Positions 26,450-62,771 of a stretch of DNA of 64,000 nt are shown piece after piece. Position numbers and translations under genes: made by a program. Every line of letters starts with the position of its first letter. Positions within the stretch are counted from its first letter, which is position 1. The stretch spans positions 25,968-89,967 of the IMG/VR virus record IMGVR_UViG_3300044471_000009; one strand, given 5' to 3'. The notes under the pieces were generated by a model. It saw only the letters and a list, made by a program, of their open reading frames with translations, had not been told where the DNA came from and made no database searches. This DNA comes from a virus. Taxonomy: Duplodnaviria; Caudoviricetes.

Positions 26450-27535
26450 TCATTCATTTCCAAACACCTCCGGCCACCGCTTTGCAAACTCTTCCCGCAG
26501 CGGAATCATCACTTCGCGCATGGATGGCTCTGCCGCCTTTGAGCAGCGCAGCTTGAAGATGTGTCGCCACTGCTCTAAATTGGCGTAAATAATGAGTTCC
26601 GTCTTGCAAGAATTGGGCAGCACGGTACGGGCTTCCTGTGGGCTTGCGCCGTAACCTATCATTGTCAGGTACGCTTTCTCAGTCGACCTGCACTGGTTAT
26701 ACCATGCCCAATACCTCTCTGTATATGTATCTTCTTGATTCAAATGCCTCCACTGCGGACAATCTTTGGCAAAATTGTACTCTTCTTTCTTAGTGTCGCA
26801 GGGCCTTTCGACGCATAGGTTACATGGCTGCGAGGATTCAGGAAGAAACGCACTCGGCCTAATAAAAGTTACTTCATTGCCGAATTTCCCAGAGGCATAA
26901 TTGCAGTAACGTTGTGAGGTTTGCAATATAGCCATAGCTCTGTGGCGACAAATCTCGTGGCTTATTGCGCGATTTACAATGAACTTGACCGCGATGTGGC
27001 GGTGCTTGGCCAGCAAGTCCGCAGGCAGCCGCTCCACCTCTTCCAGAGGCACTTTGCGGACAGTTATGCTGGACATGATCAATTTGCATTCCAGCGTGAT
27101 GTCATCAAAGAAATACGGGTGTTGCTTGCGGAGCAGTGCGCAGGCAGCCAAAACTACGCCGCACTGCTCCGGGTCACCGATTAACATCTCTCGCCATGCC
27201 CGGATGCTGCCAGTAATCAGCATCCGAACCCTGTCCGCGCCAGACGACCTATCTTCATTTGGCGTAACTTTAGAAAGCTGAAGATATTTAGGAATCGTTT
27301 CGAGAAAATCGAAATAATCCCAAGAGTCACAATTGACCTCCAGTGTCACAACGCCCATTTCTAAAACCGAATTGTGGCCGCTTTTAATCGCCTTCTCGAC
27401 AAACGGCAAGGCCGACTCCGGCGTGATGCGGTCTTCGCTCTTGTAGCAGATGCGCCCGCAATGCTCGATGCGAACGGGAAGGCTCTGCTGGTCGAGATGG
27501 TCAAGAATTTCAAAGGATGCAGGAACTATCTTCAT
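26450..27535 (-). CDS. thyX: FAD-dependent thymidylate synthase (long form)
   Basis: GHNSVLE, SHEICRHR...SQRYCNY, EARTVLPNSCKTE and PSMREV motifs. Confidence 0.92.
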   Translation of the reverse strand: MKIVPASFEILDHLDQQSLPVRIEHCGRICYKSEDRITPESALPFVEKAIKSGHNSVLEMGVVTLEVNCDSWDYFDFLETIPKYLQLSKVTPNEDRSSGADRVRMLITGSIRAWREMLIGDPEQCGVVLAACALLRKQHPYFFDDITLECKLIMSSITVRKVPLEEVERLPADLLAKHRHIAVKFIVNRAISHEICRHRAMAILQTSQRYCNYASGKFGNEVTFIRPSAFLPESSQPCNLCVERPCDTKKEEYNFAKDCPQWRHLNQEDTYTERYWAWYNQCRSTEKAYLTMIGYGASPQEARTVLPNSCKTELIIYANLEQWRHIFKLRCSKAAEPSMREVMIPLREEFAKRWPEVFGNE

Positions 27536-35375: not shown

Positions 35376-35703
35376 TGGTTAGCTTTTCCTTGAGTGGGCA
35401 GTCTTTTTCGCCGAGAAGACCGTCAATAAAACACTTCATTCGCGGGTGCCTACAGAACTCATTGCTGACAAGACCAATGAAATTGCGTTGCGCCTTGTGG
35501 CCGCCGTATTGACATGTGCCAGTTGCTGATTTGGAGCACGGATAAATCTTCATCGCCATCGCCTCGCCTCCTGATTGTTTCGTAACACCCTCTAAAACGC
35601 TCATATTGCCGCCTCCTTTGCGTCCATTTCCTCGATAGCCTTCCGGTACATTATCTCCCCGCGCTGCGCTTTTTGCAGCGTTTCTGCGCAAAACAGATGC
35701 CAC
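35338..35703 (-). CDS. Hypothetical Cys-containing protein (start uncertain)
   Basis: ORF track; the likely start is MSVLEG. Confidence 0.4.
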   Translation of the reverse strand: MASVLRRNAAKSAARGDNVPEGYRGNGRKGGGNMSVLEGVTKQSGGEAMAMKIYPCSKSATGTCQYGGHKAQRNFIGLVSNEFCRHPRMKCFIDGLLGEKDCPLKEKLTNGDMDDNEKAVD

Positions 35704-45480: not shown

Positions 45481-45612
45481 AGCAAAACTCATGCCAGTTT
45501 TATTGAAATAAAAATATCAAGCGAAACTGCATGTTTACAAAATTCACAGCTCAAAATTAGTACAAACTTTAGAACAAAGTTTAAAATGTTGAATTTAATA
45601 ATTTGAACTTTA
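45481..45612 (-). promoter_or_regulatory. Sigma-54 module A
   Basis: TGGCAT-GAGTT-TTGCT at 45496-45481; enhancer AAAGTTCAAA...TTTAAACTTT at about 45612-45560. Confidence 0.8.
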
Positions 45613-49894: not shown

Positions 49895-50058
49895 GATTCG
49901 TTCTCCTGTTGGTTTCTATCTACGGCCCGCTTGCCGCTCTTCATCGTGAGTACATCTTACCACGTTCAAGCGGTCTATGCAAGACCAAAATCGGGGGTGA
50001 TAGACCGTTTTGTGTTTTTTTTTATTTTCACCGCATTCACTCTTGCTGCTTTTGCACA

Positions 50059-50190
50059 TGCAAAACGTATGCCAGATTCAGTATAATAAAATATTAAGCA
50101 AATTAAGTAACTTGTAAAAATCAAGGTTTCGGATTAGTGCAGTTTTTTATACAAAGTTCAAATTTTTGATTCAAGATTTTGTAATTGAGA
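50059..50190 (-). promoter_or_regulatory. Sigma-54 module B
   Basis: TGGCAT-ACGTT-TTGCA at 50074-50059; enhancer ...TTTGAACTTTGTAT at about 50190-50148. Confidence 0.8.
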
Positions 50191-50396
50191 AGGAATTGGG
50201 GGTCGGATGAGTTTTTTTTGACTATGCGAAATGAAACCTTGGGAAAATAACCGATATGGTGTAAAATGCGAAAAACGGCCCCTGGAAGGGCTTCGGCTGT
50301 GCAGAATCAGACCGCCGTATTGGAATTTGACAGGAATGGTGCAGTGTTACGATGTAGGTGATGACGTGTAGAGATAGCTGTAGGTGTGTTTTCAAA

Positions 50397-50427
50397 GCAG
50401 GCCGGTTGACTCCGGCCTGCTTTTTTT
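50397..50427 (+). terminator. Intrinsic terminator
   Basis: GCAGGCCGG-TTGACT-CCGGCCTGC then T7. Confidence 0.75.
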
Positions 50428-50644
50428 GTTTGCGGCAAGCTGGTTAGCTGCCCGGCAGTTCGCACTGTATATATAGCGTTGTCGAAAATGCACAGAAACG
50501 GGCTGAATTTCAACGATAGCTCGCCGGGGTGATAGGTTATAGGCGTTCATGTGCCGGAAGGGGCTTGCTGGGCAATTTGCGGCGTTTCGACGGAACAGGC
50601 AATCCTGCCTGTTTAAACTGTTCCCTGAAACTTTTTTTTGCTTA

Positions 50645-50689
50645 ACCTTAATTTTTTTTCTTTACACAGACAAAAAATTAAGGTATAGT
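50645..50689 (+). promoter_or_regulatory. Sigma-70 promoter with operator-like inverted repeat, copy 1
   Basis: TTTACA-17-TATAGT inside ACCTTAATTTTTT-N14-AAAAAATTAAGGT. Confidence 0.8.
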
Positions 50690-50734
50690 TATTTTATCAG
50701 CAGCACAGACCACTAAAAAAAACCGGGGAACACC

Positions 50735-54406: not shown

Positions 54407-54495
54407 CAGATGCGCCGCATGTTCAACTGCCCAGTCTGTTTACAATTGCGGGCTGGGCAGCTCTATAGATTTGCGTTTCAATCTTATTTTTTTTT

Positions 54496-54544
54496 CTATA
54501 CCTTAACTTTTTCTCTTGCACCTGACAAAAATTTAAGGTATAGT
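54496..54544 (+). promoter_or_regulatory. Sigma-70 promoter with operator-like inverted repeat, copy 2
   Basis: TTGCAC-17-TATAGT inside CTATACCTTAA...TTAAGGTATAG. Confidence 0.8.
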
Positions 54545-54599
54545 CTCTGTATAAGATTTGAGCGGCAATCAAGCCGAAATAAAAACACCGGAGAGCAAA

Positions 54600-56672: not shown

Positions 56673-56688
56673 TTAGCCTGCCCATTCC

Positions 56689-56822
56689 GTACAAAGTTCA
56701 AAATATTGAACACGAAGTTTTGAACTTTGTACTAAAATTTAAACCAAACCAGGCACGTTGTTTTTGCAAGTGCGCAGTTTGCTTGAATATTTTATTTATG
56801 CAAATCTGGCACGGTTTTTGCT
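56689..56822 (+). promoter_or_regulatory. Sigma-54 module C
   Basis: 15-bp inverted repeat GTACAAAGTTCAAAA-N14-TTTTGAACTTTGTAC; TGGCAC-GGTTT-TTGCT at 56807-56822. Confidence 0.85.
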
Positions 56823-56882: not shown

Positions 56883-57146
56883 ATGAGAGCAAGGAAAGTT
56901 CAGATAAACGCCAGTAACAGAGTTATTCAGGACAACGAAAAAGAAGCAGCAAGGAAGCTGCAAGCGACATTAGTCAGGATAGACAAAGGGGAGAGATTTT
57001 TCTTCAATATAACAATCTTAGAAAGCAAGGGGCTGATAAAAGGAATAGGTCATTACCGCAACAATTCATCTGGGAATAGGGAGCGGGTCAATACAACATG
57101 GCACCTGACCGAGAAGGCAAAACAGTTTTGCAGCGTGGTGATTTGA
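56883..57146 (+). CDS. Hypothetical protein, first gene under module C
   Basis: 87 aa. Confidence 0.6.
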   Translation: MRARKVQINASNRVIQDNEKEAARKLQATLVRIDKGERFFFNITILESKGLIKGIGHYRNNSSGNRERVNTTWHLTEKAKQFCSVVI

Positions 57147-57484
57147 TGGCAAAGGGAACATGGGCGAACCGAGAAAGAGAAAGGGCTTTTTCTGGCTTGA
57201 GGAAGGAAATAGAGGCAGCCGATAAGCAACGAGAGCAGGATTTCAAAGCGTCAATTCCGGCTACCTTGGCGAAGAATAAGGAGGAAAAGGAGTTCATGAC
57301 GCAGGTTGCGCTTGGAATCATGGCTAAAATCAAGCCCGGTGACAGCTTGGAATATTTTGGCCTTCCGAATGTGATTGCGGCAAAGATCAATAAAAAGTCA
57401 ATAACAGACAGCAATGGCGAGCGATGGAGTGTTGATTCGCTCAGAGGCATGATTCCAGCGATTAAAAGGAGAACAACGAGATGA
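57146..57484 (+). CDS. Hypothetical protein
   Basis: Start re-called at MAKGTW, overlapping the upstream TGA. Confidence 0.6.
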   Translation: MAKGTWANRERERAFSGLRKEIEAADKQREQDFKASIPATLAKNKEEKEFMTQVALGIMAKIKPGDSLEYFGLPNVIAAKINKKSITDSNGERWSVDSLRGMIPAIKRRTTR

Positions 57485-57987
57485 AAAAGATTGATATAGA
57501 TTGGAAGCATTTACGCAGCACTTGCGGATGGATGCTTAAAGAAAACGCCAGCGTTGATATCATACGCTCGGCAGATGCTATTGAAAATTCGATCAGGAGA
57601 AAAAGGTTATTTGGCAACAAGGATCTTTTTGCAAGCAAATACGCAGGCGGCGCGGAAAACAGAGAGATTCTATTCACTTGTGCGGATGAGTATATTCACG
57701 ATGGAGAAGCCAGCATTGAAGTCAGTGAGATATTCAGCAAACAAATGTCTCGCATTAAGCAGCATGGAATTTTTTCGGCTCTGGAAATTGCGGCAACAGG
57801 TGGCGACAGGAATGTTGATCGAGCGAAAGAGGTTATCGGCAAACACAAGGGCTTGTTGTTTGCTGGCGGAGGCCGTGCAATAGAAACCGCTATTAAAGAG
57901 CTGAAGGAAGAAGGCATGGCCATTAAGTATCGTCGCAAGATTAACGACTACTGGGAAGTCGAGGTCGTTAAAGGGGATACGAAATGA
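57481..57987 (+). CDS. Hypothetical protein
   Basis: 168 aa, ATGA coupling. Confidence 0.6.
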   Translation: MKKIDIDWKHLRSTCGWMLKENASVDIIRSADAIENSIRRKRLFGNKDLFASKYAGGAENREILFTCADEYIHDGEASIEVSEIFSKQMSRIKQHGIFSALEIAATGGDRNVDRAKEVIGKHKGLLFAGGGRAIETAIKELKEEGMAIKYRRKINDYWEVEVVKGDTK

Positions 57988-58397
57988 AAAAGAAAGAAAC
58001 AATCCTGTGTCACACGTTCATCGGCACCGTGCCGCTTGTGGTTGGAAAGAAGTTTCTGTTCGAGGCTGAAGGACAACAGCCGCGCCAGATGTGTGTGGTT
58101 AGGGATTATCCATTTATCTACATGACAAGGTTCCTGATGCCTGGATATGAGGTTATTGATTGCATGTCAGGGTTTATGGTTCCGCACATCGAAAATCATG
58201 CACATGATGCACGGCCAGACAGGATAATTCAGGCTTTTTACGAGAAGATGCAAAGTGGCTGGGTTTCACCTGATCGCATCGCAGCAGTCGTAAAAGATGC
58301 CAAACCTGAAGATGTTAAGTGGTCAGAATCCGAGCTGTCGACTATCCCGTGCGAGGTGAAGACGAAAATAAAACAGGTTTATGGGATATGCCTGTAG
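57984..58397 (+). CDS. Hypothetical protein
   Basis: 137 aa, ATGA coupling. Confidence 0.6.
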   Translation: MKKKETILCHTFIGTVPLVVGKKFLFEAEGQQPRQMCVVRDYPFIYMTRFLMPGYEVIDCMSGFMVPHIENHAHDARPDRIIQAFYEKMQSGWVSPDRIAAVVKDAKPEDVKWSESELSTIPCEVKTKIKQVYGICL

Positions 58398-58422
58398 TTT
58401 TAATCTATCAAGGAGGCTGCAA

Positions 58423-58698
58423 ATGAAAGGCATTGAGGAAGTGACTGCGTACCGCACCAGAGACGGCAAGCTGTTTGCAAATGCAGAAATGGCGGCGATA
58501 CATGCGGAATGGCTTGCCGAGATATACAGGACAGACAAGGATGAGCTGAACCTGATGGTCAAAAACCAGTGCCGCTGTAAACGAGCTATGAAGTACCTGC
58601 GCGGCAAGGAAGCCGCCGCAATGCAGTCAGTGATTGCCAATAGGGCGGCGAGGATAGCTATGCTTATGGAATTTATCAAGAAAGGGAGTGGCGCGTGA
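58423..58698 (+). CDS. Hypothetical protein
   Basis: AGGAGG RBS; MKGIEEVTAYRTRDGKLF. Confidence 0.6.
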   Translation: MKGIEEVTAYRTRDGKLFANAEMAAIHAEWLAEIYRTDKDELNLMVKNQCRCKRAMKYLRGKEAAAMQSVIANRAARIAMLMEFIKKGSGA

Positions 58699-59003
58699 TG
58701 ACCAATATAAAAGTACGTGATGCCGTGCATTGCCTTGTGTGTGGACATATTACCTTTTCTTGCAATTTAAGAAGAGATGGTGATTACACGGTCAGATTTT
58801 CTATGGGCAGAGGGTTGACAATAGAAAATGAAGACGACGCGGGAAATGCTGAAAGTGCCACCAAGGATGGAATACTTGACCTTATCAGGCAAGGCGATTC
58901 AGCTTCTTGGCCGGACTGGAATAGTTTCCTGCTCTACTGGATAGGGCAGGCTGAAGGACAGAGCAGAGGACATGCAAGCTGCATAAGGAATCGCAGTTTA
59001 TGA
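58695..59003 (+). CDS. Hypothetical protein
   Basis: 102 aa. Confidence 0.5.
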   Translation: MMTNIKVRDAVHCLVCGHITFSCNLRRDGDYTVRFSMGRGLTIENEDDAGNAESATKDGILDLIRQGDSASWPDWNSFLLYWIGQAEGQSRGHASCIRNRSL

Positions 59004-59165
59004 ATCTTTACCCACTATAAAAAGTAATCCCGTTTCCTTGCCTCGCAAAACAGCAGGAAACGGGCCTAAATTCAGCGTTTATGGTGGCGGCGGTACGGTT
59101 AGGCGTTGAGGTGGAGAATGGCAACAGAGGGGCGTTTGAGGTGTTTCTTAACTAAAGGAGAAAAA

Positions 59166-59534
59166 ATGATGACAAGAGCAATCCGCAACACGGACGAATT
59201 CGCCGAGCTGCTTGATTTTGTGCAAAGCAGACTAATCCTGCCTGCTGAAGCTGTGCTGCCGGTCGAGCCGGTGGAATGCAAGGAAAACGCTAAGAAGTTC
59301 CACTACACTGGCTCGGAAGTGTTTTTCAAGGATGTGAAATGTATATCTGTTGAAGAGGTGAGGAAGCTGCTGTGTGCCATGAAACATTGCACATCGTCTT
59401 GCTATTACCATGAACTTTTTAGCAAGGCGATGTATGAATTATGCCCAGATGCTTGTGAGGCAGTGGAGGGATTCCTTGCTGAATGGAGCAGCGATGAAGA
59501 TGCTAGAGCTTGTGCAGCAGGACAGCACCGTTGA
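59166..59534 (+). CDS. Hypothetical protein
   Basis: AAGGAG RBS. Confidence 0.55.
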   Translation: MMTRAIRNTDEFAELLDFVQSRLILPAEAVLPVEPVECKENAKKFHYTGSEVFFKDVKCISVEEVRKLLCAMKHCTSSCYYHELFSKAMYELCPDACEAVEGFLAEWSSDEDARACAAGQHR

Positions 59535-59565: not shown

Positions 59566-59697
59566 TCAAGTTCAATATTTTGTATTCAATATTTTGCATT
59601 TTGTACAAATTATTGAATTAATCGGAAGGCGTGGTTTTTGTAAGTATGCCATTTTGCTGAAGATTTTATTTTTTGTGAAACTGGCATTCATTTTGCA
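59566..59697 (+). promoter_or_regulatory. Sigma-54 module D
   Basis: Enhancer CAAGTTCAATATTTTGTATTCAA...TTTTGTACAAA; TGGCAT-TCATT-TTGCA at 59682-59697. Confidence 0.8.
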
Positions 59698-59763
59698 TAT
59701 ACCAAGGTAACAACAGTGCGGCAATCGGGCCGCAGAACAAAGAAAACCAGAGCGGAGAGCATC

Positions 59764-62572: not shown

Positions 62573-62703
62573 CAAAGTTCAAATTCTTGTATTCAGCTTT
62601 TTAAACTTTGTACAAGAATTTAAACTAATCTGAACAAGCAGTTTTTGCAAACACCTGATTTTACGTGATATTTTTTAGTTTCAAAACTGGCACGACCTTT
62701 GCA
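62573..62703 (+). promoter_or_regulatory. Sigma-54 module E
   Basis: CAAAGTTCAAATTCTTGTA...TTTAAACTTTGTACAAGAATTTAAACT; TGGCAC-GACCT-TTGCA at 62688-62703. Confidence 0.85.
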
Positions 62704-62771
62704 TATACCAAGGTAAAGAATGCGGCAATCAGGCCGCAGAGTAAAAAAGCAAAACAGAGAACGGGGACACA

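Follow-up and report, generated by a model that had tools for sequence, protein, structure and literature searches.

Classical enhancer-dependent sigma-54 promoters, such as glnAp2 with NtrC, pspA with PspF and IHF, Pu with XylR and IHF and norV with its three NorR sites, have a GG-N10-GC core and an absolute need for an AAA+ activator. Phage timing, in the textbook view, is set by phage sigma factors, phage RNA polymerases, anti-terminators or a modified sigma-70 holoenzyme. The FleQ box of Pseudomonas, the 14-bp GTCAAT-N2-ATTGAC, is bound by the Fis-type helix-turn-helix dimer of a sigma-54 activator that acts at sigma-54 promoters and also at sigma-70 promoters, there as a repressor or an activator (PMC10723142). 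In T4 late transcription, the sliding clamp functions as a mobile enhancer-like activator (PMC2988020; PMC7892883). A literature search found no natural phage with enhancer-dependent sigma-54 promoters and no phage-encoded enhancer-binding proteins. Here an uncultured phage is described in which five gene blocks are each headed by a bacterial-style enhancer and a sigma-54 promoter.

The stretch of 64,000 nucleotides analysed, referred to as the window, comprises bases 25,968-89,967 of an 89,967-bp IMG/VR record classed as linear and estimated to be 78% complete. The right end of the record lies inside an open reading frame after cassette E, such that sequence is missing past this cassette. The window contains five modules (A-E) of approximately 135 bp each with none elsewhere in the 90-kb record, and an nhmmer search of the 89,967-bp record with the module profile returned these five copies alone (E 1e-30 to 1e-35). 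All five follow one plan, in which three 16-bp dyads are joined by a conserved AT-rich spacer to a perfect sigma-54 box (Table 1). An earlier note on this DNA had claimed an element of about 55 bp in all five modules, and the five elements were found where it had placed them, each being 49 bp long (48 bp in B). Just 5′ of the first dyad a C-rich tract (consensus approximately CCnCCCCnnTCC) is present at 56675-56690 in module C and in the equivalent flanks of B, D and E; in a by-eye comparison this flank resembles that of one family of Desulfobulbia sRNA promoters (see below).

Table 1. Positions in the window of the five enhancer-promoter modules and of the other features discussed in the text.
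Feature	Positions	Strand	Details
Phage HU/IHF-family gene, 92 aa	29142..29420	-	PF00216, E 3.4e-25; HU and IHF chains in PDB
Module A enhancer	45560..45608	-	dyads 45593-45608, 45579-45594, 45560-45575
Module A sigma-54 -24/-12 box	45481..45497	-	heads leftward replication arm
Protospacer in leader of cassette B	49949..49982	+	31/34 bases against Candidatus Electronema aureum GS CRISPR spacer
Module B enhancer	50137..50184	-	dyads 50169-50184, 50156-50171, 50137-50152; most degenerate copy
Module B sigma-54 box	50059..50075	-	heads recombination cassette
Early sigma-70-type promoter PE1	50632..50700	+	TTTACA-17-TATAGT within inverted repeat
Second early sigma-70-type promoter	54487-54555		near-identical copy of PE1
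Module C enhancer (element first noted)	56696..56744	+	dyads 56696-56711 (perfect), 56710-56725 (weak), 56729-56744
Module C conserved spacer	56762..56794	+	TTTTGCAA, 18 nt, TATTTT
Module C sigma-54 box	56806..56822	+	heads orphan small-gene cassette
Cassette C orphan small genes	56883-59534		behind module C
Module D enhancer	59570..59618	+	dyads 59570-59585, 59584-59599, 59603-59618
Module D sigma-54 box	59681..59697	+	heads orphan cassette
Module E enhancer	62577..62625	+	dyads 62577-62592, 62591-62606, 62610-62625
Module E sigma-54 box	62687..62703	+	heads last cassette

The overlapping inverted repeats first described in the element resolve in each module into three dyads of the 16-bp pattern GTWCAA-N4-TTGWAC, with GTTCAAAATTTTGAAC as the consensus over the modules. 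Relative to the T of TGGCA the dyads start at -112/-98/-79 in A and D, at -111/-97/-78 in C and E and at -110/-97/-78 in B, the offsets differing by no more than 2 bp between modules. The distances to the promoter that had been counted for A to E (113, 111, 112, 113 and 112 nt) were reproduced when measured from the G of site 1 to the first G of GG. With centres at approximately -130, -116 and -97 from the predicted start, the three dyads of each module fall in the range of approximately 80-150 bp upstream of the start that is expected of enhancer sites. Allowing at most one mismatch the dyad was matched 17 times against 2.0 expected, with 16 of the 17 matches within the modules. In a PWM scan of the 90 kb the top 14 matches were all module sites, a ranking that is partly circular since the matrix was built from the same sites.

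The extended box CTGGCAY-N4-TTTGCW was observed five times against an expectation of 0.03. The five boxes have the exact GG-N10-GC spacing and near-consensus flanks of a sigma-54 promoter, and all are intergenic and oriented into the first gene of a cassette, with leaders of approximately 50-155 nt and start codons approximately 78-180 nt past the T of TGGCA. A sixth perfect match to TGGCAY-N5-TTGC, at 35688-35702(-), was dismissed as a chance match, being inside a gene with no dyads upstream.

Pairs of modules are 62-72% identical, and despite this divergence the alignment of the five needs just four gap characters, indicating that the length of the module is constrained. By segment, identity is 71% in the enhancer, 49% in the 16-nt linker, which is free of gaps, 63% in the spacer and 78% in the core. 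A kept length with a drifting sequence is what a looping element requires, and the enhancer-promoter distance is constrained in this way, to which the common descent of the copies may partly contribute. The spacer itself has the same arrangement in all modules, TTTTRYAA, 18-19 nt, (T/G)ATTTT, 12-13 nt and then CTGGCA, at shared offsets. In our reading of the aligned modules this AT-rich spacer departs from the IHF consensus WATCAANNNNTTR. It represents either a site of bending or a weak pair of sigma-70-like hexamers, and the HU/IHF-family protein of the phage could be a candidate for bending it.

The modules divide the gene map. Reading leftward, module A heads genes for a radical SAM protein, RusA, SSB, an O-like initiator, a DnaB-like helicase, more helicases and ThyX, and module B heads a recombination cassette that includes an exonuclease VIII-like PDDEXK protein. 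Reading rightward, modules C, D and E head cassettes of orphan small proteins without a family match, of which cassette E is the last and runs past the end of the contig. The other arm, with the terminase, portal, scaffold and capsid genes, has no modules. The region between B and C encodes IbrA-like and IbrB-like proteins together with proteins lacking a family match, and searches with the early proteins recovered neither a family nor a look-alike that was informative. This activator-less early region is served by the two sigma-70-type promoters, each of which lies within an inverted repeat of approximately 40 bp with no further copies in the record. Because of this gene layout, an order is suggested in which sigma-70 early genes are followed by sigma-54 middle genes.

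A number of smaller features were seen in and around the early region. Alongside the early promoters an XRE-type HTH protein is recorded at L003:1113-1619 (locus label). An apparently non-coding stretch at approximately 50240-50430 (+), between module B and the early promoter, could represent a small RNA; a TTGGGA-17-TAAAAT match is present at 50239-50267, and at the end of the stretch is a strong terminator (50394-50423, followed by a T-run). Downstream of promoters D and E and of the second early promoter a short leader hairpin, GCGGCAATCNGGCCGC, is found (54562-54585, 59718-59741 and 62722-62745).

The earlier note had also stated that the window holds no cognate activator, and this holds for the whole record. 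In six frames no match was found to PF00158, PF14532, PF02954, PF04552, PF00004 or PF04542 (Sigma54_activat, Sigma54_activ_2, HTH_8, the sigma-54 DNA-binding domain, AAA and sigma-70 region 2), nor was any GAFTGA-like peptide or phage sigma factor gene detected in the record, and Sigma54_activat was equally lacking from the rest of the phage record outside the window. As such, a protein combining an AAA+ sigma-54 interaction domain with an HTH is absent from 89,967 bp representing approximately 78% of the genome, a test that is incomplete because of that coverage and because the right end is cut inside a gene. IbrA/IbrB were considered as an unconventional activator and appear unlikely in this role, since a comparison set of 160 homologue loci (1.85 Mb) was without modules, without an excess of sigma-54 boxes and without dyad clusters. 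The proposal that one enhancer type and one activator, encoded elsewhere on the phage or supplied by the host, control all five promoters is supported by the symmetry of the dyads, the kept length, the AT-rich spacer and the lack of an activator gene in 90 kb. For the source of this activator a host protein is given a little under an even chance and a phage gene in the unsequenced part is a real, somewhat less probable possibility, with some other source being improbable.

Relatives of the phage were sought by several routes. A search with the motif pattern gave nothing in viral contigs, and in metagenomes and genomes it gave only unrelated bacterial sigma-54 promoters. No usable relative was obtained by megablast against phages or by related-locus searches with the 704-aa and 253-aa proteins, the portal, P0005 and DnaB. 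The 704-aa protein does have homologues, one of them on a 68-kb contig, and the capsid protein is approximately 40% identical to those of Pseudomonadota siphoviruses.

Indications of the host come from a CRISPR spacer and from thyX. BLAST of the 44-64 kb segment against 301 genomes belonging to the same class as a Desulfobulbaceae genome identified a 34-nt spacer in a CRISPR array (NQJD01000031.1) that aligns end to end with 49949-49982, and in an exact search the sole genome with this spacer was that of the cable bacterium Candidatus Electronema aureum GS. The expected PAM was not found beside the protospacer, and the three mismatches suggest a relative of this phage as the origin of the spacer. 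The phage thyX, at 26450-27535 (-), has nucleotide matches in 248 of the 301 Desulfobulbia genomes, reaching 90% over 181 nt; in a phylum-wide set 13 of 201 genomes were matched, the strong matches being Desulfobulbia, and the gene was probably acquired from the host lineage. Tetranucleotide use shows weak agreement with a Desulfobulbia-type host. A search of 401 Desulfobacterota genomes did not recover the capsid protein, and the IbrA homologues gave no host signal, being spread across many phyla. Taken together, the spacer match and the Desulfobulbia-like thyX DNA point to a host that is probably a cable bacterium or a close relative. This putative host lineage has both sigma-54 promoters and activators, with 32 PF00158 matches in one Desulfobulbaceae genome and 16 perfect sigma-54 boxes in Candidatus Electronema aureum GS, where the reversed control gave 2.

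The same dyad is found at sigma-54 promoters in other bacteria. When one genome per species was scanned for a perfect dyad lying 60-90 bp 5′ of TGGCAY-N5-TTGC, 79 loci were obtained, about half of them in Desulfobacterota. As the scan had no shuffled-motif control, its weight rests on orthologous conservation and on gene contexts. The Desulfobacterota loci have a single dyad at approximately -103 of the sigma-54 promoter. In Desulfobulbia such a promoter drives an RNA of approximately 75 nt, ended by a terminator and carrying a CUCCUUUCUCCU motif, at approximately 20 loci; it has no Rfam match. Its enhancer is a single perfect GTWCAAWWWWTTGWAC at -103, and in five of these genomes a dyad of this type is the only perfect dyad genome-wide. 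In Acidobacteriota-type genomes two to three dyads lie approximately 20 bp apart 5′ of sigma-54-driven TonB-receptor genes, and in one Acidobacteriaceae genome two dyads are placed between a sigma-54-driven catalase gene and a divergent regulator operon encoding a histidine kinase and an NtrC-type regulator. Judged by the RNA, TonB-receptor and catalase contexts, GTWCAA-N4-TTGWAC is a genuine enhancer type in bacteria.

In the best host candidate, dyads at -24/-12 promoters were not found. The genome bearing the CRISPR spacer and four close kin have no sigma-54 promoter with a dyad and no copy of the Desulfobulbia sRNA motif, and the sRNA enhancer was consequently rejected as the native target, both the motif and the pairing of dyad and box being absent from these genomes. 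The five genomes do share one perfect dyad, GTACAATTTATTGTAC, directly 3′ of the TTGAAA-17-TATAAA promoter of a gene for a membrane GGDEF diguanylate cyclase. Its position suggests that GTACAATTTATTGTAC is an operator, recognised by a host factor that shares the DNA specificity of the phage enhancer. No gene of the candidate host lineage could be assigned as a FleQ orthologue, the PF06490 matches there being weak and REC-like.

From the anatomy of the modules, the match statistics, the arrangement of the genes and the lack of an activator gene in 90 kb, all of which are observed directly, we infer by wholly computational means how the element would be bound, how the DNA would loop, when the genes would be expressed and who would supply the activator. 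The 49-bp element is likely to be a looping enhancer (UAS) of a sigma-54 promoter that serves a DNA-binding activator. Its six half-sites, arranged as three GTWCAA-N4-TTGWAC dyads, would accommodate a hexamer, as three dimers, of a DNA-binding AAA+ enhancer-binding protein whose helix-turn-helix is of the Fis type. Bending of the AT-rich spacer, possibly with the HU/IHF-like protein of the phage, would allow the bound ATPase to contact host RNA polymerase-sigma-54 held closed at CTGGCAY-N4-TTTGCW, and ATP hydrolysis would then open the promoter. The five switches would in this manner turn on the middle genes for replication, recombination and the three orphan cassettes, the early region having been expressed beforehand from its sigma-70-type promoters. 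Expression of the phage may be coupled to a host signal. A more far-reaching version is tentative and rather doubtful, namely that the phage has no activator of any kind and appropriates one from cable bacteria or their relatives, a signal-gated enhancer-binding protein that is perhaps the factor binding GTACAATTTATTGTAC; the replication and takeover genes of the phage would then be switched on only when the host filament is in a certain physiological state.

Other readings of the modules have to be weighed against a looping enhancer. The dyads might serve a conventional activator or repressor, not of the AAA+ class, that controls a sigma-70 promoter within the spacer (TTGYAA, 18 nt, TATTTT), the sigma-54-like box then being transcribed leader. 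Both hexamers are conserved at fixed positions in the five modules, a consensus scan reported the pair in B, site 3 would have its centre at around -62 relative to such a start, the position of a class I activator, and in cable-bacterium-like genomes the dyad adjoins a sigma-70-type promoter. The hexamers are however weak, matching at four of six positions each with an 18-nt spacer, and 12 invariant sigma-54 consensus bases would be left in all five leaders for no reason, making this reading unlikely; a weak sigma-70 start could also coexist with the sigma-54 promoter, the two readings being compatible. It is slightly less likely again that only the sigma-54 boxes work, through an activator that has no DNA-binding domain and acts from solution, with the dyads as inherited baggage of a duplicated module. 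That the five copies share ancestry is clear, but at 62-72% identity the half-sites and the module length have been kept and the 16-nt linker has drifted to 49%, and a minimal activator was likewise not found in the record.

The clustering of 16-bp palindromes exactly at cassette borders, in a phage encoding a ParB-like protein and an O-like initiator, would also suit parS-like, iteron-like or recombination sites, used by the ParB-like IbrB, by the initiator or as homology anchors for cassette shuffling. Set against this are the distance and orientation to the sigma-54 box, which are fixed in all five copies, and the 160 IbrA/IbrB homologue loci, in which the palindrome does not recur with the ParB-like gene: dyad matches there number 6.5 per Mb against 133 per Mb in the phage, without clusters, and module matches and an excess of sigma-54 boxes are equally lacking. 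Shuffling at conserved promoters could for its part be a side effect, and we regard sites of these kinds as very improbable, marginally more so than inherited baggage. Least probable is a hairpin of RNA or single-stranded DNA acting, for example, as the terminator of the upstream cassette or as a processing site. Modules C, D and E do fold well (z -5 to -8) and an Rfam miRNA-hairpin match falls on C, but A and B fold no better than shuffles, site 1 pairs with site 2 in C and with site 3 in D and E, and no U-tract follows; since the pairing differs by module and the Rfam match is spurious, the reading as an RNA family or hairpin was rejected. It is the sequence of the half-sites that is conserved and not the fold, which points to a protein-binding site.

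On the reading of the module as a looping enhancer with its sigma-54 promoter, the switch is complete in cis, with enhancer, spacer and promoter, and heads the replication genes, so that the phage cycle would hinge on one ATP-driven activator. Were this activator to come from the host, infection would be tied to a host signal; were it to come from the phage, it would belong to a type not found in the literature search, a phage sigma-54 activator that binds DNA. According to a paper from 2025 the viruses of cable bacteria were still unidentified (PMC12163305), and the contig matched by the Candidatus Electronema aureum GS spacer is a candidate phage of cable bacteria or close relatives.

Compared with the described systems the modules are closest to the classical sigma-54 promoters, which likewise have several dyads approximately 90-140 bp upstream of the start and an AT-rich or bent spacer. 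Unlike these, the phage element occurs in five copies, heads replication, recombination and orphan genes, has no activator gene beside it and has a spacer that does not match the IHF consensus. The FleQ box and the phage dyad are both pseudo-palindromes with a common inner CAA-N4-TTG and an A/T-rich centre, and the position of the host-lineage dyad just after the sigma-70-type promoter of a diguanylate cyclase gene recalls FleQ. The dyad of phage and host is however 16 bp long, its outer GT being displaced outward by one base at either end, and its relation to the FleQ box is one of resemblance and not of membership. While the T4 late machinery is wholly different, consisting of gp55, gp33 and gp45 with neither a -24/-12 promoter nor a fixed DNA site, T4 late transcription and the phage modules would have in common a timing switch in which an energy-dependent activator acts from a distance.
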